This document shows positions 2,956-12,330 of a stretch of DNA of 24,000 bases, in pieces. Numbering within the stretch: position 1 is the stretch's first letter; each line of letters starts with the position of its first letter. A model generated the notes under the pieces. It was given only the letters and a program-made list of their open reading frames with translations, did no database searches and had not been told where the DNA came from. This DNA comes from Stellaceae bacterium (lineage in GTDB: Bacteria > Pseudomonadota > Alphaproteobacteria > ATCC43930 > CGMCC-115725). Location: positions 1-24,000 of the forward strand of contig DATJJW010000061.1 in NCBI GenBank assembly GCA_035491935.1, read 5' to 3'. The translations under genes were made by a program, and so were the position numbers.

Positions 2956-3200
2956 TAGTTTGATTAAAATGTGGTTAACGTGATGTCCCTGGGAACGCGA
3001 CTATTTGAATGCTGAAATAAATCCAGCCTTCCGAAACCTCGCCGCTGTGTGCGGGAGGAAACTATTTTTCGCGATCTCTGGTCTATGAATTTTGATACGT
3101 CAGCAACGTAGAGCTGTGCGCGCCTTGCGGGTCATTGAAACCGATTTATCGGTAGAGAAAGGACTTTCCCGCCGTTGCGGTGCGATCAGGAGAGGGTGCT

Positions 3201-4367
3201 ATGGTGAATGATAAACGGCGACCGTCGCAATTGTCCGCGGATGATTCGAGCCGTTACATCAAGGAAGCCGTAGCCCGACGTTCTCCACCGCCGCCGACAT
3301 CCGACCCCTCGTTCATCGTCGGCAACAGTCCGCAGATGCTCGAGGTTTTCGACCGCATCAGGCGATTTGCGCCCTATGAATTGCCGGTCCTGATCACTGG
3401 CGAAAGCGGCACGGGCAAGGAACTGGTCGCCAAGGCCATCCACGAACGATCCGGCCGGGCGTCGGGTCCCTTCGTCGCCGTGAATTGCGCCGGCATGCCT
3501 GCCACCCTGATCGCGTCGGAGCTGTTTGGCTATGAGAAGGGGGCCTTCACCGGTGCGCTCGCCCGAAAACGCGGGCTTGTCGAGCAGGCGGCGAATGGCA
3601 CGCTGCTCCTGGACGAGATCGGCGACATGCCCTTCGATCTCCAGGGCCATTTGCTGCGGTTCCTGCAAGAGGAAGAGATCGTCCGCGTCGGCGGCCATGA
3701 ACCGGTCAAGGTGAGCGTCCGCGTGATCGCGGCGACCAACGTCAAGATGGCCGATGCCGTGGCGGCCGGGCGTCTGCGCGAGGATCTGTTCTACCGCCTC
3801 AACGTGCTCAGCCTGCATCTGCCGCCGCTGCGCCTGCGCGCGGGGGACATTCCGATCCTGGTGAATTATTTCCTGGAGACGATCGCGCGCGAACTGCATC
3901 GGCCGAAGCCGCAGATAAGCCCATTGGCCGTCGCCGCGCTGGAAGCCCATCGCTGGCCCGGCAACATACGCGAGCTGATCGCCACGCTGCGTCGTGCCAT
4001 CGTGCTCTGCAACGACGATTTGATCGAGACGGGCGACCTCGGTATGGAATTCGCCGAAGCGCCATCCAGCCAGCCGATCAAGCTCATGCCCGACCGGCCG
4101 CGTCCCGGATCGGAAGAGGAGCGCGCTTTGCTGCTCGATACGCTGGGCGACCACGGGTGGAACATCACGCGCTGCGCGCAAGTGCTCAACGTTTCCCGCG
4201 TGACGCTCTATCGCATGCTCGAGCGCCAAGGTCTCAATGTCAGCGATGAGGGCAAGAGCCCCGGTCTCGCCCGCGGCCGGACCGGCATGCGCCCGGCACC
4301 CATGGGGTTGACGACGCGCGCCGAAGGCAAGCCGTCCTACCCGCTTCTACGCCCCGACGGCATCTGA
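3201..4367 (+). CDS. sigma-54-dependent transcriptional activator (bEBP) with AAA+ and Fis-type HTH domains and no N-terminal sensory/receiver domain
   Basis: ATG at 3201 follows CAGGAGAGGG. Motifs present: Walker A GESGTGKE, the sigma-54 contact loop GYEKGAFTGA, DEIGDM (Walker B), REDLFYRLNV, and C-terminal HTH NITRCAQVLNVSRVTLYRMLERQGL. Only about 45 aa precede the AAA+ core. Confidence 0.9.
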   Translation: MVNDKRRPSQLSADDSSRYIKEAVARRSPPPPTSDPSFIVGNSPQMLEVFDRIRRFAPYELPVLITGESGTGKELVAKAIHERSGRASGPFVAVNCAGMPATLIASELFGYEKGAFTGALARKRGLVEQAANGTLLLDEIGDMPFDLQGHLLRFLQEEEIVRVGGHEPVKVSVRVIAATNVKMADAVAAGRLREDLFYRLNVLSLHLPPLRLRAGDIPILVNYFLETIARELHRPKPQISPLAVAALEAHRWPGNIRELIATLRRAIVLCNDDLIETGDLGMEFAEAPSSQPIKLMPDRPRPGSEEERALLLDTLGDHGWNITRCAQVLNVSRVTLYRMLERQGLNVSDEGKSPGLARGRTGMRPAPMGLTTRAEGKPSYPLLRPDGI

Positions 4368-4510: not shown

Positions 4511-4526
4511 TGGCATATCCCTTGCT
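4511..4526 (+). promoter_or_regulatory. sigma-54 (-24/-12) promoter
   Basis: cTGGCATatcccTTGCTa compared with the consensus YTGGCACG-N4-TTGCW. GG and GC have the correct spacing. The site is 83 nt upstream of the ATG at 4609 and immediately downstream of a bEBP gene. Confidence 0.75.
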
Positions 4527-4608: not shown

Positions 4609-5664
4609 ATGCGTAAATTCTTTCTTTTGACGGTGTCTGTGTTCGCTATGACCAGCGTTGCCGCATACGCCGACGAGCATAACGGCGGTAACAATAACGG
4701 CAACAATGGTGGCGACCCCGGCAAGAGCCATACGCCGCCGAGCCTGGAGCAGTACCTCTCGGTCGCGGTCGCGGTGAACTATGCCGATTCGTCTGACAAC
4801 GACCATTCGCTCTCGAACGGCCAGAAGAACTCCGCTCAGATCGGCTCGTCGTTCCAAGGGGCTGAAGGCGTCTCCAACCAGAACCAGAATGCCGGCGCCA
4901 ACAGCGCGCTGCAGAACTCGCTGTCGCTGGCCTATGTCCAGGGCTGCGCCTGCGGCACGACCGTCGGCGGCGGTTCCAAGGATGGTTCGAGCGGTTCGAT
5001 CGGCGATGCGGCGGCCTTTGCCGCGGCCCTGAATTTCGGCTCGATCGAGGAAGCCGGTGGTGTCCATATCGACGACCCGCACAGCTATCATTCGGCGCCG
5101 ACTTCGGCATCGGCGACGATCAACAACGGTGCCTATAACGGCTTCACCGGCGCGGCGCAGGTGAACCAGAATGCCGGTGCCGGCTCGCTGCTGCAAAACG
5201 CCACGGCGCTGGCCTCGGTCAACCCGATCTCCGGCACGATCGACCAGACCAAGGTGGCACTCGGCCTCGCGCTCAATGACGGCTCGGTCACGGACAACGC
5301 GGTTTCCAACGACCAGCACAACACCACGAGCGCCATCGACGGCTCGTTCAACAACATGAAGGGTGTTGCGAACGTCAACCAGAACGCGGCCGCCAACTCG
5401 CTGCTGCAGAATTCGACGGCGATTTCGTCGATCGAATACTGCAACTGCGCGGCGACCGATCTCAGCGCTTCGGCGGCCCTCAGCGCCAATATCGGTAATG
5501 TGAACGACAACAGCTTCAGCGCCACCAATGGCTCGAACGCCACCACGATGAACGGGTCGTTCAACGGCTCGCAGGGCGTGATGCAGATCTCGCAGAACGC
5601 GGGCGCCAACAGCCTGCTGCAAAATGCAGCTTCGGTGGCCGTCATCACGCAAGTCGCGCACTAA
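4609..5664 (+). CDS. secreted Asn/Gln/Gly/Ser/Ala-rich four-repeat protein; candidate major fibre/amyloid subunit (FapC-like architecture)
   Basis: ATG at 4609 follows GGGAGAAATGGGAGA. Signal peptide is MRKFFLLTVSVFAMTSVAAYA|DE. There are four imperfect repeats, each ending GxxGVxxVNQNAGANSLLQNxxA. The protein is 351 aa and almost devoid of charged or aromatic residues. The ORF-track start at 4390 lies upstream of the sigma-54 promoter and was rejected. Confidence 0.8.
   Translation: MRKFFLLTVSVFAMTSVAAYADEHNGGNNNGNNGGDPGKSHTPPSLEQYLSVAVAVNYADSSDNDHSLSNGQKNSAQIGSSFQGAEGVSNQNQNAGANSALQNSLSLAYVQGCACGTTVGGGSKDGSSGSIGDAAAFAAALNFGSIEEAGGVHIDDPHSYHSAPTSASATINNGAYNGFTGAAQVNQNAGAGSLLQNATALASVNPISGTIDQTKVALGLALNDGSVTDNAVSNDQHNTTSAIDGSFNNMKGVANVNQNAAANSLLQNSTAISSIEYCNCAATDLSASAALSANIGNVNDNSFSATNGSNATTMNGSFNGSQGVMQISQNAGANSLLQNAASVAVITQVAH
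4756..5661 (+). repeat. four imperfect ~70-90-aa protein repeats (R1-R4) within the major subunit gene
   Basis: Core motifs: NQNAGANSALQN (DNA 4876-4920), VNQNAGAGSLLQN (5161-5202), VNQNAAANSLLQN (5374-5415) and SQNAGANSLLQN (5587-5628). Each repeat starts with an alternating hydrophobic strand: AVAVAVNYA, AAFAAALNFG, VALGLALNDG, ASAALSANIG. Confidence 0.8.
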
Positions 5665-5807: not shown

Positions 5808-6128
5808 ATGACGAGAAACATCCGGGTGCTCACCGCCATGGCCGTCGCGGTGGGAATGCTGAAGCTTCCGGTGATTGCTTATGCCGATCCTCTACCTGTT
5901 CCGCCCGTCTCGCTGAGCGATCTGCAAGACAGCGCCGCCAAGGGCCTGCCGGACAATTTGAACTCGGCACAGGTCTCGGCCAATTCCGTGGGCACCAACA
6001 CGGTGACGGGCATCATCAGCAATGCCGGCTCACTCAACAACAATAGCGGGCTGACCACCGTCCTGCAGAATACCGGCAACAATTCGCTGTTCCAGACCTC
6101 GACGGTCATGAACATCACGATCCATTAG
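5808..6128 (+). CDS. small secreted single-repeat paralogue of the major subunit (candidate nucleator/minor subunit)
   Basis: Signal peptide is MTRNIRVLTAMAVAVGMLKLPVIAYA|DP. The mature part ends SLNNNSGLTTVLQNTGNNSLFQTSTVMNITIH, which aligns with SFNGSQGVMQISQNAGANSLLQNAASVAVITQVAH of the major subunit. RBS AGAAGGA. Confidence 0.75.
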   Translation: MTRNIRVLTAMAVAVGMLKLPVIAYADPLPVPPVSLSDLQDSAAKGLPDNLNSAQVSANSVGTNTVTGIISNAGSLNNNSGLTTVLQNTGNNSLFQTSTVMNITIH

Positions 6129-6151: not shown

Positions 6152-6859
6152 ATGCTGCGACCGATACGCCTCATGCTTGCCTGCCTTTGCGGCGGTCTCG
6201 GCCTGGCGGGGATCGTCGCTTCGGCTTATGCCGGCGACATGACCCTCACCAGCGAGATAACCGGCTCGACGGCGTTCCATGTGCCCGTGAAGAGCTTCAA
6301 GGAATTGAAGTTCGTGCACACCTTGCATCAGCAGGTCGATTATTCCTGCGGCGCAGCGGCGATCGCGACCTTGCTGACATATTCCTACGGCAAGCCCGTG
6401 GCCGAGCGGACCGTGTTGCAGGACATGCTCGACCACGGCGACAAGCAGGTCATCCAGACCAAGGGCTTCTCGCTGCTCGACATACGCAACTACCTTGCCC
6501 GGCAGGGTCTGCAGTCAGGCGGCTACCGGTTGCCGCTGGACAAGATCCCCGAGGTCGCCGTTCCCGGCATCGTCCTCATCAACCACAATGGCTACAACCA
6601 CTTCGTCGTGGTCGACGGGTTCAAGGATGGCCGCCTGCTGCTGGCCGACCCGTCCTTGGGCGCCCGGACCGTCGATGTCGACACGTTCAAGCGCGAATGG
6701 ACGGGGGTCTATTTCGTGATCCTCACCGGCGCCGACGACGCCAGGCGCAAATTCAATCTCAAGGAGGATTGGTCGCTTCAGGGACATGGCACCTGGGACC
6801 GGTTCCGCGACACGTTCGACCTGGCGCGGCTGAGCTTCAAAAGCGCTGATGCATTCTGA
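6152..6859 (+). CDS. periplasmic stand-alone C39 family cysteine peptidase (FapD-like)
   Basis: GAGGAGG RBS. Signal peptide ends ...IVASAYA|G. Catalytic elements: Gln/Cys region HQQVDYSCGAAAIATLLTY, His region NGYNHFVVVDG, Asp in LLLADPS. No ABC transporter domains are attached. Confidence 0.8.
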   Translation: MLRPIRLMLACLCGGLGLAGIVASAYAGDMTLTSEITGSTAFHVPVKSFKELKFVHTLHQQVDYSCGAAAIATLLTYSYGKPVAERTVLQDMLDHGDKQVIQTKGFSLLDIRNYLARQGLQSGGYRLPLDKIPEVAVPGIVLINHNGYNHFVVVDGFKDGRLLLADPSLGARTVDVDTFKREWTGVYFVILTGADDARRKFNLKEDWSLQGHGTWDRFRDTFDLARLSFKSADAF

Positions 6860-6873
6860 TTGGGGGCAAGACC

Positions 6874-7632
6874 ATGAGAATAAGCCATGCTCTCTATCCC
6901 GCGGTCGCAGCGTTATCCCTGTTGGTGATGCGCGACGCCTATGCGGATGTTCCAGGCAGATCCGGCCCGGCGCCCAAAGCCGTCGATCTCTTCGACTATT
7001 ACGCGCCCGGTGTCGTTCCCGGGCCGAAGGCGAGCGTCCATGAGGCCGCGGCGAGTACCCGGTTATCCGTCCAGCCGGCGCCTGTCCAGTCGGTGTTTGC
7101 CCAGTCAGCGCCCGTCCAGTCAGCGCCCGTCCAGGCAACACCTGCCCAATCGGCACCCATCCAATTGGCGATGGCGAACGAGATACCGGCCGACCAGCTG
7201 GGCGATATCCGTGGCGGCTTCTCCCTGCCCAGCGGCATGGAGATCAGCTTCGGCTTCGACATCGCCACACGGGTCGGCGGCGATGTCGTGCAGCAATTGA
7301 GCGTGCCGATGACGAATGTGCCGGGCACGGGTTCCTCGGTGCCGCTATCCGTGCTGTCGCAGGGGGCGTCGAGCTCCGTTCAGCTCTCGCTTGGCTCCGC
7401 GGCGCCCGTATCGGTGTCCTCGCTCGCCAATACCGGCCTCACCTCGATCACCACCACGCTGGGTGCCGGCGGGATCTCGTCGCTCATCCAGAACCAGGCG
7501 AACGGTCAGGTCATCCAGCAGACCCGCGTGCTCGACGTGTCGATCAGCGGGCTTACGCAATCCCTGGCACAGCAGGCCGCGCACACCATGATGGTCAATG
7601 CGCTCGCGGCCGCTTCCATGCCGCGTCATTGA
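6874..7632 (+). CDS. secreted protein with an xAPxQ pentapeptide array, an internal double-glycine motif and a degenerate QN repeat (position equivalent to FapE)
   Basis: Signal peptide ends ...LLVMRDAYA|DV. The Ser/Gly/Thr/Gln-rich C-terminal half includes GGISSLIQNQANGQVIQQTRV. There is a 14-nt gap to the C39 gene. GC3-rich frame. Confidence 0.7.
   Translation: MRISHALYPAVAALSLLVMRDAYADVPGRSGPAPKAVDLFDYYAPGVVPGPKASVHEAAASTRLSVQPAPVQSVFAQSAPVQSAPVQATPAQSAPIQLAMANEIPADQLGDIRGGFSLPSGMEISFGFDIATRVGGDVVQQLSVPMTNVPGTGSSVPLSVLSQGASSSVQLSLGSAAPVSVSSLANTGLTSITTTLGAGGISSLIQNQANGQVIQQTRVLDVSISGLTQSLAQQAAHTMMVNALAAASMPRH
7075..7164 (+). repeat. six tandem 15-bp units encoding PAPVQ SVFAQ SAPVQ SAPVQ ATPAQ SAPIQ
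   Basis: Direct reading of 7075-7164. Two adjacent units (TCAGCGCCCGTCCAG) are identical. Confidence 0.85.
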
Positions 7633-7640
7633 GGGACGAG

Positions 7641-7961
7641 ATGCAGCGCTTTCCGTACATTTCCAAATACGCCGCCAGGTGGGTCGCCCGCCTGACGCTC
7701 GGCCTGCTTTGCCTGTTGCCGTTCCAGCCGGCAAGGGCGGCGGATGGCGTGGTCGAAGTCGCCACGCCGGTGATGCCGATAACCGACAAGCCGGTGCCTG
7801 TCGAAGACCTGGCAGGACAGGCCGCGCGCGGTACCCCGCCGGGCCTGCCGGTCCTGCAGGAGAAACCCAAGCCGACCATCCGGCTCTGGGATGAAGTGAG
7901 TATTAGCCACGCCCTACCCAATCAGGGTACCATCAATTCAACAACGATGACGGTCCATTAA
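7641..7961 (+). CDS. small exported protein of unknown function (cluster accessory)
   Basis: ATG at 7641 follows GAGGGACGAG. Signal peptide is ...LGLLCLLPFQPARA|AD. The middle is Pro-rich. The C-terminus GTINSTTMTVH resembles the ...STVMNITIH end of the 5808 product. The TTG at 7629 in the ORF track is less likely. Confidence 0.6.
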   Translation: MQRFPYISKYAARWVARLTLGLLCLLPFQPARAADGVVEVATPVMPITDKPVPVEDLAGQAARGTPPGLPVLQEKPKPTIRLWDEVSISHALPNQGTINSTTMTVH

Positions 7962-7982
7962 GATCGTAGAGGAACCTTGGCC

Positions 7983-8483
7983 ATGATTACGACGAACATC
8001 TGGCGTTTCGCGGCAATCACTGGACTTTTCCTGCTCTGCCAATGCTCTGAGCAGAGCCAGCAAGCAAACAGCGGGCGCATCGCCGCCCCATCATCCAACG
8101 CAGCGAAGATATCGGATCCGTCCGGGCCGAGCCTGCTCCAAGAGCGCGGCAGCAAGCTCGCCATCGGCGAATATCGTCTCCTGGTCACGGGCAACACCTT
8201 GTTCCGGCCGTTGGCCAGCGGCGGCGAGACGGCGATCTACATCGCCCCCGATGGCGACCAGAAGATGCTGCTGCGCACCGCCGACGGGCGCAGCGGTACC
8301 GATAACGGACATCAGACCGAGCGCGGTTCGCTGGCCTGCTGGCAGTGGCAAAAGGCCGGTGCGGGCAGGATTCTGTGCTTCCAGCCCTATTGGAACGGCA
8401 GGGTTCTGACCATGGTGGAAACTTCGGGGGCCGTACAGCCAGCCCAATTCGTTGTCCAGAAGGGCAATTCAGCGTCTCTTTGA
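7983..8483 (+). CDS. exported (possibly lipo-)protein of unknown function (cluster accessory)
   Basis: AGAGGA RBS. N-terminus MITTNIWRFAAITGLFLLCQCSEQ is a signal peptide with a non-canonical lipobox. Four Cys residues in total. The start could instead be the TTG at 7977. Confidence 0.6.
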   Translation: MITTNIWRFAAITGLFLLCQCSEQSQQANSGRIAAPSSNAAKISDPSGPSLLQERGSKLAIGEYRLLVTGNTLFRPLASGGETAIYIAPDGDQKMLLRTADGRSGTDNGHQTERGSLACWQWQKAGAGRILCFQPYWNGRVLTMVETSGAVQPAQFVVQKGNSASL

Positions 8484-8583
8484 ACTGATTTCCGGGGCAC
8501 GTCAAACAGCCGAAATCGATGCCTACTGGGGATGGGTGACGTCTTCACGCCATTCCGCCAGATCGAGCGTTGGGGGAACAGTG

Positions 8584-9996
8584 ATGGGCAAGAAAATTCA
8601 CCGTTGGGCCACCTTTGTCCTTCTGGTCGCTGCCGAGCTTCCTTGGGCGGGAGCGGCGTCGGCACAGGCCGTGACGGCGAAGGATTTCGACGAGCTGCGC
8701 ACGCTGCTGCGTCGCCAGCAGCGCCAGATCGACCAGCAGGCCCAGCAGTTGCACGAGCAATCGAACGAGCTAAGGGCGCAAACCCGTCAGATCCAGGCGC
8801 AGCGGCGCCAGCTCGACCAGTTGCAGGGGCACCCGAATGCCCAGGGGCGGAAAAGACTGGCGGGTTCGACGGGCACGGCGGTGGTGGCAGCTCCCGTCGT
8901 ATCGCCGTCCCCGCAGGCCGCCACGCCGCAACCATCTGCCGAGGTGGTGCGTGCCCAAGTGGCCGAGAACCCGGAGGTTGCCCGCGAACGCGAGCGCGAG
9001 CAGCAGAACCGCATCGCCCAGACCAATACCAGCCTGGCGCGCACCGGCGGCGTGCTGACCCAGAAGGGGACTTTGCTGATCGAGCCGTCGCTCGAATACG
9101 ATTACCAATCGCAGCGTCAGGCCGTGGTGAGCGGTTTCACCATCATTCCCGGCATCACCTTCGGCAACATCAACATCACCAAGACGCAGCAGAGCACCCT
9201 GACCCAGGCGATGACGTTCCGCTACGGGGTGACCGACCGGCTGGAGCTTAATGTCCGCGTGCCCTTCGTCTATACGACGGCGTCGACCACCACCGGCAAT
9301 ATCACCCAGAACGCGCAACCGATCACGGTGCAGTCCGAAGGGCATTCGCTGGGCGACGTGGAATTCGGCGGCAGCTACCAGATCAATTCCGGTCAGCAGG
9401 GATGGCCGATCTTCGTCGGTAATCTGCGGGTAAAGACGATCACCGGGCGCGACCCCTTTTCCGTGCCGATCTACACGATCAACGATCCGAACGGTGCGTT
9501 CCTGCAGGGTATCCAGAAGGAGACGCCGACGGGCACCGGCTTCTATTCGGTCGAGCCGAGCATGACGGTGCTGTATCCGAGCGACCCGATCATCCTGTTC
9601 GGCAATCTGCGCTACATCCACAACATACCGCGCACCGTCAACGTCCAAAGCAGCACCGGCGACGCGCCGACGCCGACCAGCCTGCATCCCGGCGACGGCA
9701 TCGGCGCCAATTTCGGCTTAGGTTTCGCCTTCAACGAGAAAGCGTCGCTCAGCCTGAGCTATGAGGAAGTGCATGTCTTCAATTCGTCGAGCAACCACGT
9801 GTCGATCGGCGGGTCCAGCTATGATTTGGGAACACTCAATTTCGGCCTCGGCTATCAGCTCACGCCGAAGGTCAGCGTGAATCTCAGTGCCGGGATCGGC
9901 GTCACGCCTGATACCCCGGCGGCCAAGATCCTGCTCTCCGTCCCGGTCCACCTGCCCCTGTTCGGGCCGGCGGTGGGCGCCAATCATTCGTCCTGA
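8584..9996 (+). CDS. outer-membrane beta-barrel protein with an N-terminal coiled coil (FapF-like / MetA-pathway-type barrel)
   Basis: ATG at 8584 follows GGGGGA. Signal peptide ends ...AGAASAQA|V. A 7-heptad coiled coil spans residues 35-80, followed by a Pro/Ala-rich linker. The C-terminal ~300 aa show alternating beta-strand patterns (LLIEPSLEYDYQS, LELNVRVPFVY, GDVEFGGSYQI, LSLSYEEVHVF, LNFGLGYQLTP). The ORF-track start at 8452 overlaps the previous gene and lacks a signal peptide. Confidence 0.75.
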   Translation: MGKKIHRWATFVLLVAAELPWAGAASAQAVTAKDFDELRTLLRRQQRQIDQQAQQLHEQSNELRAQTRQIQAQRRQLDQLQGHPNAQGRKRLAGSTGTAVVAAPVVSPSPQAATPQPSAEVVRAQVAENPEVAREREREQQNRIAQTNTSLARTGGVLTQKGTLLIEPSLEYDYQSQRQAVVSGFTIIPGITFGNINITKTQQSTLTQAMTFRYGVTDRLELNVRVPFVYTTASTTTGNITQNAQPITVQSEGHSLGDVEFGGSYQINSGQQGWPIFVGNLRVKTITGRDPFSVPIYTINDPNGAFLQGIQKETPTGTGFYSVEPSMTVLYPSDPIILFGNLRYIHNIPRTVNVQSSTGDAPTPTSLHPGDGIGANFGLGFAFNEKASLSLSYEEVHVFNSSSNHVSIGGSSYDLGTLNFGLGYQLTPKVSVNLSAGIGVTPDTPAAKILLSVPVHLPLFGPAVGANHSS

Positions 9997-10023: not shown

Positions 10024-10512
10024 ATGCCCGTTCATCATGACAATGCAGATATCGGCGACAGCACGATCTCCAGTAGTTGGCGACGCGCAAGGCGGCGACG
10101 CCTGCGCATCCTGCTCGCCGATGGCGATCTCGTTCACATGGAACTGCTCAGCATGATGCTCGAGCCCGATCATGCCGTGATCGGCGCGCTGGCCGAAGGG
10201 GCCTATGTCGTCGAGATGATCGCGCGGGCGAAGCCCGATATCGCCATCATCGACATCGGCATGCCCGGTTTCCGAGGTATAGCGGCGACGTGGCGTCTCC
10301 AGCAGATCGCCCCCGAGACGAAGCTGGTCGTCCTGACGACGGATGCCAGGTTCGAATGCATCCGCGGCGTCCTCAGTGCCGGTGCGATGGCCTATCTGGT
10401 CAAGCCGGTGTCGGTCGCGGAACTGCACAAGGCCATCGCTTTCGTCGCGCAAGGCGGAAAATATCTGCCGGCCTCGATCGCCGGGGGGAAGCCGGACATC
10501 CTCATGCAGTAG
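10024..10512 (+). CDS. stand-alone response-regulator receiver (REC) domain protein with NarL/FixJ-type REC and no output domain
   Basis: GAGGAG RBS 7 nt upstream. Receiver motifs: RILLADGD, PDIAIIDIGMPG (phospho-acceptor Asp), KLVVLTT, AMAYLVKP. The protein ends soon after the 'GGKYLPASIA' linker with no HTH. It starts 27 nt after the barrel gene. Confidence 0.8.
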   Translation: MPVHHDNADIGDSTISSSWRRARRRRLRILLADGDLVHMELLSMMLEPDHAVIGALAEGAYVVEMIARAKPDIAIIDIGMPGFRGIAATWRLQQIAPETKLVVLTTDARFECIRGVLSAGAMAYLVKPVSVAELHKAIAFVAQGGKYLPASIAGGKPDILMQ

Positions 10513-10555: not shown

Positions 10556-11302
10556 ATGTGCGCCACCGAGCAAGAGGACGGGGCGGCCACGGAGGATACC
10601 CGCAGCAGAGCGGCCCGTGCCGCCGAAGCGCGTGTCCTGCCCGCGGCCGTACGAAGGCTTGCGGATGATCTGGGGGCTTCCCGCGAACGGACATCCCATG
10701 TCCTGATGCTGCAGAAGGGGCAGGTGCTGCTGATGCGGCGCTTTTCCCCGGTGACATTCGCGGCGATCGAGAAGGTTGGCGTCTCGGCGCCGGCTTTCAC
10801 CTGGAAATCGCGATACCGGTGGTTCGGTTTCCCGATCGGCGCCATCCACGAATACTTCACGCCCCTGTCGGCGGGCCGTTCGATACGGGCCGGCTGGTCG
10901 GAGAGCGTCGTCGATACCCAGGAGCAGGACGAGCAATGGGCCGCTGCGGCCCTGAGGTACCTGGCCGAACTCCCCTGGCATGCCGACAGCATCGTCTTCA
11001 ACGACGCCATCATCTGGGATGTCCGGGGGCGCGGCAGGATCCGCGCCGCCCTCCGCTACGGCGAGAATCTCGCAAAGGTCGCGATCGACCTGTCCGCCGA
11101 TGGCGCCGTGGCCCGCATTCGCGCCAATCGTCCGGTAGCAACGAAGAATGGCTTCCAGTCGCGGGCCTGGGCCATGGAATTCAGCGCCTATCGTCTTTTC
11201 GAGACCCGATGGGTCCCGACGCTCGCGGAAGTGTCGTGGGAGGATGGGAACAAACGTCAGATCTATCGGCGCATCGAGGTCGAGGATTGGACGTGTCGAT
11301 GA
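10556..11302 (+). CDS. hypothetical protein (faint resemblance to DUF6544-type proteins; unverified)
   Basis: GC3-rich 248-aa frame from the ATG at 10556, with no clear RBS. LRYLAELPW and a C-terminal ...RWVPTLAEVSWEDGNKRQIYRRIEVEDW are present. The ORF-track start at 10343 overlaps the REC gene out of frame and was rejected. Confidence 0.5.
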   Translation: MCATEQEDGAATEDTRSRAARAAEARVLPAAVRRLADDLGASRERTSHVLMLQKGQVLLMRRFSPVTFAAIEKVGVSAPAFTWKSRYRWFGFPIGAIHEYFTPLSAGRSIRAGWSESVVDTQEQDEQWAAAALRYLAELPWHADSIVFNDAIIWDVRGRGRIRAALRYGENLAKVAIDLSADGAVARIRANRPVATKNGFQSRAWAMEFSAYRLFETRWVPTLAEVSWEDGNKRQIYRRIEVEDWTCR

Positions 11303-11355
11303 TGGCGACCACCTCGTATCGGCGGCGCTGATTGCCGGTCTGTCACCGGGGCGGA

Positions 11356-12330
11356 TCACTGGGCCGGGACCAGGGCCTTGATGCTGGCCTGCGCCGGATC
11401 GTCGAACGGTGCCTCGGGCAAGGGCCGCCGTGTCGGGACGGGCAGGGGTTCGCCCTGCGCGCAATCGATGAAAAGGCGCAGAGCGGACGACACGAAGCTG
11501 TCCTTGCGGTGGACGAACATGGTCACCGCCTTGGCGATGCCGGCGGGCAGGGTATGGGCGTGGACGCGCCCCTGGTGTTCCGCCGCGGCGACCACGGCAC
11601 GCGGCAGCAAGCTGACGCCGAGGCCGGCGGCGATGCAGCCGATGATGCCGTCGAGCGTGCCCATCTCCATCCGGCGCACATCGACGAAACCTTCCCGGGC
11701 GAGATACTCCAGGGTTCGCTGCCGATAGGAGCAGCCGGCCCGGAAGACGATGACCTTGCGGTTGCCGTTCGAGGCGAAATATTCCGTGACTTGCCGCGGC
11801 GTCCTGATCTGGGGCGGCGTCACCAGCACCAATTCTTCCTCGACGACGGGCAACGCTTCCAGATCGGCGTGGGCGACCGGTCCGGCGACGAAGGCGCCAT
11901 CCAGCCGGCGGGCCAGCACGCTCTCGATCAGCGGCTCGGTCGGCCCGCTCTCGATCTGCAGATCGACGGCGGGGCAGCGATCGGTATAGGCGGTCAGGAT
12001 CGGCGGCAGCCGCAGCGCCGCCGTCGTCTCCAGCGAGCCAATGCGCAATTCGCCGCCAGGGGCCGCCTCATCTCGAACCACCCGCCGGACCTCATCCAGT
12101 AGCTCATGGATGCGCAAGGCATAGGGTAGCAGACGGCCGCCCATCGCGGTGAGGGTGACGCCGCGCTTCGAGCGATGGAAGAGTTGGGCCCCGAGTTCAC
12201 GTTCGAGGCCGCGGATGCGCTGGGTCACGTTCGACTGCACCGTGTGCAGGTCATGCGCGGCGCGGCCGATGCCGCCGGCATTTGCCACTGCCAGGAAGAA
12301 GCCGAGATCGGTGCTGTCCATGGATGTCAT
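11356..12330 (-). CDS. LysR family transcriptional regulator
   Basis: The N-terminal wHTH LGFFLAVANAGGIGRAAHDLHTVQSNVTQRIRGLERELGAQLFHR is typical of LysR regulators. About 320 aa. Divergent from the neighbouring + strand operon. Confidence 0.9.
   Translation of the reverse strand: MTSMDSTDLGFFLAVANAGGIGRAAHDLHTVQSNVTQRIRGLERELGAQLFHRSKRGVTLTAMGGRLLPYALRIHELLDEVRRVVRDEAAPGGELRIGSLETTAALRLPPILTAYTDRCPAVDLQIESGPTEPLIESVLARRLDGAFVAGPVAHADLEALPVVEEELVLVTPPQIRTPRQVTEYFASNGNRKVIVFRAGCSYRQRTLEYLAREGFVDVRRMEMGTLDGIIGCIAAGLGVSLLPRAVVAAAEHQGRVHAHTLPAGIAKAVTMFVHRKDSFVSSALRLFIDCAQGEPLPVPTRRPLPEAPFDDPAQASIKALVPAQ

Follow-up and report, generated by a model that had tools for sequence, protein, structure and literature searches.

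A four-repeat FapB/FapC-family protein and its Fap-like gene cluster in an alphaproteobacterium of the Stellaceae

This report concerns a gene for a secreted protein of 351 amino acids (aa), and the gene cluster that it opens, in a stretch of 24,000 nucleotides (the window; positions 1 to 24,000 of contig DATJJW010000061.1, assembly GCA_035491935.1) from a Stellaceae bacterium of the Alphaproteobacteria. By sequence comparison the gene was shown to encode a Sec-targeted protein of four FapB/FapC-type repeats, and to stand behind a sigma-54 promoter in a conserved cluster whose other members include FapD-, FapE- and FapF-like genes. The protein is probably the bulk fibre subunit of a Fap-type secretion-assembly system; outside the cell it would build an amyloid fibre of beta-solenoid form, each repeat contributing one layer. 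The gene and the parts of its product were located as follows.

4609..5664, + strand: putative major fibre subunit, FapB/FapC family, 351 aa, stop codon at 5662-5664
4609..4671, + strand: predicted Sec signal peptide, residues 1-21 (...AYA, followed by DE), read from the sequence
4747..4953, + strand: repeat 1 (R1), residues 47-115, closing with C113-A-C115 (DNA 4945-4953)
5005..5238, + strand: repeat 2 (R2), residues 133-210, with an insertion of about 17 residues at 148-164 and without a Cys pair
5242..5448, + strand: repeat 3 (R3), residues 212-280, closing with C278-N-C280 (DNA 5440-5448)
5455..5661, + strand: repeat 4 (R4), residues 283-351, without a Cys pair, the chain ending 2 residues past the last strand

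An identical protein with the same start has been deposited at NCBI (P0001) as a "hypothetical protein" from a metagenome-assembled genome (MAG) of a Stellaceae bacterium. An earlier annotation, made from the letters of the window without database searches (the sequence-only reading), had divided the protein into four units with QN cores beginning at residues 93, 187, 258 and 329, at spacings of 94, 71 and 71 residues. This division was confirmed by translation and by a hidden Markov model (HMM) of the repeat built from the family, which found exactly four domains in the subunit open reading frame (ORF), each at E 1e-14 to 1e-16. The cores read QNAGANSALQN, QNAGAGSLLQN, QNAAANSLLQN and QNAGANSLLQN in repeats 1 to 4. 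A core is thus present in every repeat, as had been stated, but it is not invariant, only 8 of its 11 positions being identical throughout; the flanking consensus G-(S/A)-(F/Y)-(N/Q)-G is exact in repeats 2 and 4 but approximate in repeats 1 and 3. The Cys-x-Cys motifs proposed to close repeats 1 and 3 were found at the positions given above and are absent from repeats 2 and 4; C113, C115, C278 and C280 are the only four Cys of the protein. The proposed signal peptide cut between AYA and DE falls on the conserved A-x-A site of the homologue alignment.

The repeats are far above chance and are not a compositional artefact. The protein is 20% N+Q and 46% G+A+S+T, with neither Arg nor Trp, and pairwise local alignment of the four units gave z = 8-15 over composition-preserving shuffles. 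At the DNA level the core recurs at intervals of 282, 213 and 213 nt with 66-72% identity, and no tandem array was detected by Tandem Repeats Finder; the repeats are therefore old and diverged. Identities between repeats were 45.5% for R1-R3 (marginally the highest), 44.8% for R2-R3 and 43.0% for R2-R4. A simple two-repeat tandem duplication was considered as the source of the four repeats and is not supported, since R2 is closer to R3 than to R4.

Profile comparisons place the subunit in the FapB/FapC family as a divergent member, which is a remote homologue and not an equivalog of either protein. The subunit had 98 homologues among 5.8 billion proteins searched. The Pfam family PF27129.1 (FapBC) is precomputed for P0001 and for 93 of the 98, and is carried by canonical Pseudomonas FapC as well; an older Pfam release that predates this model gave no match for the subunit. 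The NCBIfam models for FapB (E 2e-7, 30.8 bits) and FapC (E 1.4e-4, 21.7 bits) both matched below their equivalog cut-offs of 190 and 195. When compared by hhalign, the family profile matched Pseudomonas FapB at 92.6% probability (E 4.5e-7, 149 columns) and a single Pseudomonas FapC sequence at 16.5% (E 1.5e-3); against an alignment of 15 FapC sequences the E-value was 3.4e-4, with R2-R4 in register with the FapC imperfect repeats IR1-IR3. The repeat cores are likewise closer to FapB (GVTQVNQSAGVGN) than to FapC (GNVGVNLQSGAGN), the window subunit reading GVMQISQNAGANS. The minimal Fap repeat X15-G-X4-N-X3-G-X6-N-X7 (PMC3792158) is matched strictly by R1 and R2 and with one substitution each by R3 (G261A) and R4 (N328S). 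Four strict matches occur in 34 of 84 family members; a shuffled sequence is expected to give 0.06 matches. The sole sequence match of the subunit in the PDB was the FapC fibril 9u4u, and it was weak (E 1.7).

In a HMMER scan of 1.84 billion cluster representatives, 448 reached E <= 1e-3 and 52 reached E <= 1e-30. When 84 homologues were aligned, a set of ladder residues proved invariant or at least 90% conserved in every repeat, namely an Asn in the first alternating-hydrophobic strand followed by G-x5-Q-N-x-G-x5-Q-N. The sequence-only reading had proposed homologue alignment as a check and had counted a lack of conservation against itself; the QN cores proved to be conserved, so that objection does not arise, and the Cys pairs also recur in the family. 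Related loci are carried by Roseomonas, Neoroseomonas, Caldovatus, Acidiphilium, other Acetobacteraceae and Rhodospirillales MAGs and, more distantly, by Acidithiobacillus, whose subunits are 31-39% identical to that of the window over part of their length. Very long family members also exist, among them P0222 (851 aa) and P0247 (3063 aa), with up to about 15 matched stretches.

Structure prediction, also named as a check in the sequence-only reading, gave a confident all-beta model with four-fold recurrence. The AlphaFold2 (AF2) monomer had a predicted local distance difference test score (pLDDT) of 85.9 and a predicted template modelling score (pTM) of 0.82, and its strand pattern recurred four times with pLDDT above 90 in the repeat cores. 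The repeat unit is about 70 residues long with 4-5 strands. In the model, residues 2-18 form a helix of low pLDDT, residues 22-44 are disordered, and the insertion in repeat 2 (148-164) has a pLDDT of about 65. A capping element is absent at either terminus; at the C-terminus this is because the chain ends at the last strand. The top Foldseek match was a weak one to the FapC fibril 9u4u (E 3.7e-3), and the others were beta-helices and CsgA.

Synteny was judged on 25 related loci from other genomes using a tblastn synteny table. The gene set recurs at these loci in the same order, with the subunit gene first of the cluster. In the window the order is activator, major subunit, small paralogue, D, E-like, p110, lipoprotein and F, with the further features listed here.

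3180..4367, + strand: sigma-54-dependent activator with an AAA+ domain and a Fis-type helix-turn-helix, without a receiver domain (Pfam Sigma54_activat 2e-68, HTH_8)
4511..4526, + strand: sigma-54 -24/-12 promoter consensus TGGCATATCCCTTGCT (TGGCAT-N5-TTGCT), 83 nt upstream of the subunit ATG
5808..6128, + strand: small secreted one-repeat paralogue, 106 aa (repeat HMM E 7e-4, among 249 ORFs)
6152..6859, + strand: periplasmic C39 cysteine peptidase, FapD-like (Pfam Peptidase_C39 9e-21)
6874..7632, + strand: FapE-like secreted protein, 252 aa, with a double-glycine motif (...DQLGDIRGG, followed by FSLP; G114-G115, DNA 7213-7218)
7629..7961, + strand: small secreted protein p110, 110 aa (family motifs D-L-G-R-x-R-G-G and R-[LF]-W-D-E)
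7977..8483, + strand: lipoprotein-like protein, 168 aa (L-A-[AG]-C lipobox in orthologues; syntenic in 22 loci)
8452..9996, + strand: FapF-like outer-membrane beta-barrel (NCBIfam FapF 7e-46, under the cut-off)

The sigma-54 consensus had this single match in the 24 kb window, where 0.01 would be expected by chance, and 12 of the 25 loci have the same strict consensus ahead of the orthologous gene, at a distance of 96-169 nt (background 0.025 per kb). The activator gene is syntenic in most of the related loci that have enough flanking DNA. In a fetched Pseudomonas fap locus (L030), a VpsR-type sigma-54 activator was seen just downstream of fapF (10916-12238, minus strand).

The C39 peptidase matched the NCBIfam FapD model at 4e-44, under the equivalog cut-off, and Pseudomonas FapD by BLASTP at 35% identity (5e-36). 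Its catalytic Cys in YSCGAAA (residues 64-70) and His in NHFVV (residues 149-153) lie in intact motifs. The FapF-like barrel was 28% identical to Pseudomonas FapF over 323 aa (BLASTP, 2e-36); its residues 81-125, read by eye from the sequence, form an N-terminal segment that is heptad-like, Q/R/L-rich and coiled-coil-like, and its true start is probably the ATG at 8584. These FapD-, FapE- and FapF-like neighbours, together with PF27129, the NCBIfam FapB match and the hhalign probability for FapB, bear out the suggestion in the sequence-only reading of a likeness to FapC without an identical motif.

The 106-aa paralogue is syntenic in 25 of 25 loci and carries a DNA copy of the core at 6025-6098. 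Its family profile aligned with the repeat unit of the major subunit at 96.3% in hhalign (E 1.9e-9, 52 columns), which makes it a candidate minor subunit, nucleator or cap with a FapB-like role.

The FapE-like gene sits in the fapE position, directly after fapD, by comparison with the fetched Pseudomonas locus. The protein had no NCBIfam or Pfam match and a homology search with its 252 aa gave 3 matches, the link to FapE coming from direct comparison with the Pseudomonas fap locus: a 28-residue N-terminal motif aligned with the Pseudomonas FapE N-terminus (hhalign E 9e-4), in which the RGG motif and the following ...P-G-x-x-[IV]-S-F-G correspond to AEMAELRGRYVMPGRIISFG (ELRGRYVMPG). Each of the 27 orthologues has the pattern [ED]-L-x-x-[MIL]-R-[GA]-G-F. 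Residues -4, -7 and -12 of the site are hydrophobic and fit the classical double-glycine leader recognised by C39 peptidases. The site after DQLGDIRGG thus suggests both a cleavage site and a substrate of FapD-type peptidases, and the FapE-like protein is a probable substrate of the C39 peptidase of the cluster. In Pseudomonas, FapD activity is needed for secretion and FapE loses its N-terminus, and the FapD substrate was not named (Rouse et al., PMC5557850). At NCBI the FapE-like gene is called as a 153-aa product from an internal Met (MANEIPADQLGDIRGG...). The longer ORF opens with a plausible signal peptide (...AYA, followed by D) and the orthologues retain one at the N-terminus, so that the deposited start is probably too short.

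In 16 loci (e.g. L001, 10839-11138) an orthologue of p110 separates the FapE-like gene from the lipoprotein gene. The window copy, which belongs to no database family, reads EDLAGQAARG and RLWDE; p110 may serve as another substrate of the C39 peptidase or belong to the fibre as a minor component. The 168-aa lipoprotein-like protein had no Pfam or NCBIfam match, and a counterpart is absent from the Pseudomonas fap operon. No protein of the cluster matched FapA by NCBIfam, BLASTP or hhalign, the 168-aa and 110-aa proteins being dissimilar to it.

A mechanism can be outlined on the template of the Pseudomonas model (PMC5557850, PMC12392863), in which we infer every step past the gene inventory. 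Transcription of the cluster would be turned on by the adjacent sigma-54 activator. The precursor would be exported across the inner membrane by Sec and held unfolded in the periplasm, where the FapE-like and 110-aa proteins would probably be cleaved behind their R-G-G motifs by the C39 peptidase, a step on which export of the subunit would depend. The unfolded subunit would then leave through a trimeric FapF-like barrel. Outside the cell each repeat would fold as one multi-strand cross-beta layer, its register held by the Asn/Gln/Gly ladders, and repeat 4 of one molecule would template repeat 1 of the next to give an open-ended amyloid fibre of the biofilm matrix. Such head-to-tail growth is expected because the four-layer solenoid has no caps. 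The one-repeat 106-aa paralogue would be the likely nucleating or terminating layer, and the Cys pairs would lock the turn leaving layers 1 and 3, where a fit may be possible only on every second layer.

Several points weigh against the assignment as bulk fibre subunit of a Fap-type system. Similarity to canonical FapB/C is remote (about 23% identity, and the NCBIfam score of 30.8 bits against a cut-off of 190), and the Foldseek alignment to the FapC fibril, for all its E-value of 3.7e-3, has a poor TM-score (0.09-0.16). A FapA homologue was not found in the cluster, the gene order is unlike fapABCDEF, and three cluster genes have no counterparts in Pseudomonas or counterparts at the level of motifs only. 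In this lineage, moreover, secretion, the binding of amyloid dyes and the formation of fibrils are predictions. FapC is less similar to the repeats than is FapB, which in Pseudomonas is the minor subunit, and the label "major subunit" is used because this is the sole multi-repeat gene in the cluster. The protein could accordingly be a FapB-like nucleator or minor subunit, with the bulk component encoded elsewhere or represented by the small one-repeat protein, as the preference of the profiles for FapB in both hhalign and NCBIfam and the FapB-like cores would allow. This reading is considered very unlikely: the window has no other multi-repeat FapBC gene, the tblastn synteny table shows no second one at any of the 25 loci, the gene comes first after the sigma-54 promoter, and in Vibrio and Acidithiobacillus, which have a FapB of 1-2 repeats, it is the multi-repeat protein that was taken as FapC (PMC3792158).

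Still less probable is a protein that stays monomeric, forms no amyloid and acts as a beta-helical surface adhesin or binds the matrix, with its Fap-like neighbours as an export route only. One homologue is named 'Adhesin' in UniRef, a single chain by itself gives a confident AF2 fold, and beta-helical adhesins and autotransporter passenger domains also appear among the Foldseek matches, at E 1-6. The model nevertheless lacks an N- or C-terminal cap, the Asn, Gln and Gly positions of the ladder do not vary, which is also the case in FapB/C, and a one-repeat paralogue is hard to account for with a monomeric adhesin; canonical FapC is also predicted by AlphaFold to be a solenoid monomer, yet it forms fibrils (PMC12392863). 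The bulk fibre subunit remains the preferred reading.

The Cys pairs were tabulated across the family. In four-repeat relatives a pair followed repeats 1 and 3 in 66 proteins, repeat 1 only in 2 and no repeat in 15; in seven-repeat relatives (n=4) pairs followed repeats 2, 4 and 6, and in an eleven-repeat relative (n=1) repeats 2, 4, 6, 8 and 10. Three-repeat relatives had a single pair after repeat 2 (n=6, with more in a wider search), and in several relatives with 7-11 repeats the penultimate repeat alone was followed by a pair. In no family member tabulated did a pair follow the last repeat. As read from these proteins, the family rule puts a Cys pair at the end of the penultimate repeat and of every second repeat ahead of it, and never at the end of the last. 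Of the (R1R2)(R3R4) super-repeat proposed in the sequence-only reading, the recurrence of Cys pairs at every second repeat stands, in relatives with 4, 7 and 11 repeats, but the identities do not pair R1 with R3 and R2 with R4; the two-layer Cys periodicity supports a super-repeat structurally, not as a sequence duplication.

Each CxC pair most likely forms a small local disulfide, judging from its distribution. A bridge between repeats 1 and 3, by inter-repeat disulfides or a shared four-Cys metal site that would lock a two-repeat super-unit, was weighed against this and is thought unlikely. CxC pairs are classic metal ligands, and the two motifs largely come and go together in the four-repeat proteins (both in 66, neither in 15, one in 2). 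The 15 Cys-less proteins, however, form one sequence cluster, so their joint absence counts as a single evolutionary event and is no evidence for coupling. The local disulfide is favoured because a single pair suffices in many relatives, both the three-repeat proteins and the long ones with one penultimate pair, and because R2, R3 and R4 must stack sequentially, the R2-R3 and R3-R4 linkers being 3-4 residues; from the AF2 model, R1 and R3 would not be neighbours in any cyclic stacking order. Moreover, pair spacing in the family varies (CxC, CxxC, CxxxC), and canonical FapC has one invariant CxxC directly after IR3. The R1-R3 disulfide staple was downgraded on this distribution. Separately, the Cys-less four-repeat clade was seen to have two other conserved Cys, one in repeat 2 and one in repeat 4.

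With Pseudomonas FapB and FapC the subunit shares the Pfam family FapBC, Sec secretion, a composition rich in N, Q, G, A and S, and imperfect repeats built on G-x4-N-x3-G-x6-N; with FapC it also shares a Cys pair directly after the last strand of a repeat and one predicted cross-beta layer per repeat (PMC12392863). Genes for a FapD-type C39 peptidase and a FapF-like barrel are neighbours in both cases, and the window adds a putative FapE-like gene. Three repeats are found in 94% of FapC proteins (PMC12392863), whereas there are four here. Repeat number in Fap is known to range from 2 to 16 (PMC3792158), so four repeats do not disqualify the subunit. FapC has variable linkers, whereas the present units are longer (about 70 aa) with two of the three linkers very short; and where FapC has one CxxC after IR3, this protein has a CxC at the end of repeats 1 and 3 and lacks such a pair at its C-terminus. 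The cluster differs from fapABCDEF in its order, in having no detected FapA, in an extra lipoprotein, an extra 110-aa protein and a one-repeat minor subunit, and in the position of the subunit gene behind a sigma-54 promoter. Loss of FapA is a known and common deviation (PMC3792158).

Also among the closest described systems are the Fap variants of Acidithiobacillus and Vibrio, with 4-16 repeats and a reduced FapB (PMC3792158). They share with the window more than three repeats in the main subunit, a FapB-like protein of 1-2 repeats, no fapA and a detached fapF, and the Acidithiobacillus loci L027-L029 have the whole window gene set including the sigma-54 activator. The paper on Acidithiobacillus Fap (PMC3792158) gives neither the alternating Cys-pair pattern nor an alphaproteobacterial clade; in that survey of 2013 Fap was confined to Beta-, Gamma- and Deltaproteobacteria, in contrast to the present host. 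In the Acinetobacter Fil system, a 'putative pilus', FilB and FilC are matched by the C39 peptidase (2e-32) and the barrel (5e-18) in NCBIfam, although more weakly than FapD and FapF, and no Fil subunit model matches the repeat protein. Curli, like the system predicted here, are extracellular functional amyloids: imperfect repeats stack with Asn/Gln ladders, one paralogue serves as nucleator, and the outer membrane carries a channel dedicated to them. In the window system the amyloid state is predicted and the nucleator a candidate; CsgA fibrils are among the weak Foldseek matches. The likeness to CsgA noted in the sequence-only reading does not make the protein a curli subunit. No curlin repeat (Curlin_rpt; S-x5-Q-x-G-x-G-N-x-A-x3-Q) was matched in the subunit by Pfam at E <= 0.1, and the cluster has no CsgG/E/F-like genes; the curli repeat is a beta-hairpin of about 20 residues against a unit of about 70 residues with 4-5 strands, and secretion by CsgG/E/F stands against a FapF-type barrel with a C39 peptidase.

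The system would thus work like Fap, with its subunit in the FapBC family, and is of a known kind and not a new one; since a secreted repeat protein, a C39 peptidase and a FapF channel were already known, the finding refines the picture and does not change it. The lineage in Stellaceae, Acetobacteraceae and Acidithiobacillus is divergent, and a description of it was not found in the literature. Literature searches found no paper combining Fap or FapC with alphaproteobacterial taxa, a failed search being no proof of absence, and found nothing for PF27129 and nothing relevant on FapD or FapE with a double-glycine motif. It is put forward only tentatively that these loci form a distinct, undescribed Fap-like amyloid lineage of the Alphaproteobacteria (Stellaceae, Acetobacteraceae) and Acidithiobacillus, marked by control through sigma-54, a minor subunit of a single layer, an additional lipoprotein, and FapE-like and p110 proteins with canonical double-glycine leader-type motifs. 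If so, what the FapD peptidase cuts, and where, both long unclear, would be directly exposed, and alternating Cys-pair layers could make the fibre redox-tunable, a property that to our knowledge is not described for Fap or curli.

The assignment would extend the Fap functional amyloid, studied almost only in Pseudomonas, to the Alphaproteobacteria, with carriers that include cultured strains of Roseomonas, Neoroseomonas, Caldovatus and Acidiphilium, among them Roseomonas nitratireducens PWR1, Caldovatus aquaticus and Acidiphilium sp. C61. A textbook double-glycine site beside a motif shared with Pseudomonas FapE offers a concrete candidate for the FapD cut, which was called unclear in the 2017 FapF study (PMC5557850). 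A natural four-layer, short-linker design with Cys pairs in alternate layers could be useful for understanding and engineering stacked-repeat amyloids.

Other genes were seen at and near the related clusters. A PilZ protein adjoins cluster L003 (12141-12635) and a GGDEF-EAL protein lies at the Acidithiobacillus locus L029 (4138-7359); these neighbours hint at control of the matrix system by cyclic di-GMP. In the window, a stand-alone response-regulator receiver domain protein is encoded at 10024-10512, directly after the FapF-like gene. An 85-aa ORF at 342-599 encodes an unusual small protein rich in Gly, Tyr, Trp and His, in which YYAPGYY and GGWGHGGW repeats come after a lipoprotein-like signal (...LSGC).

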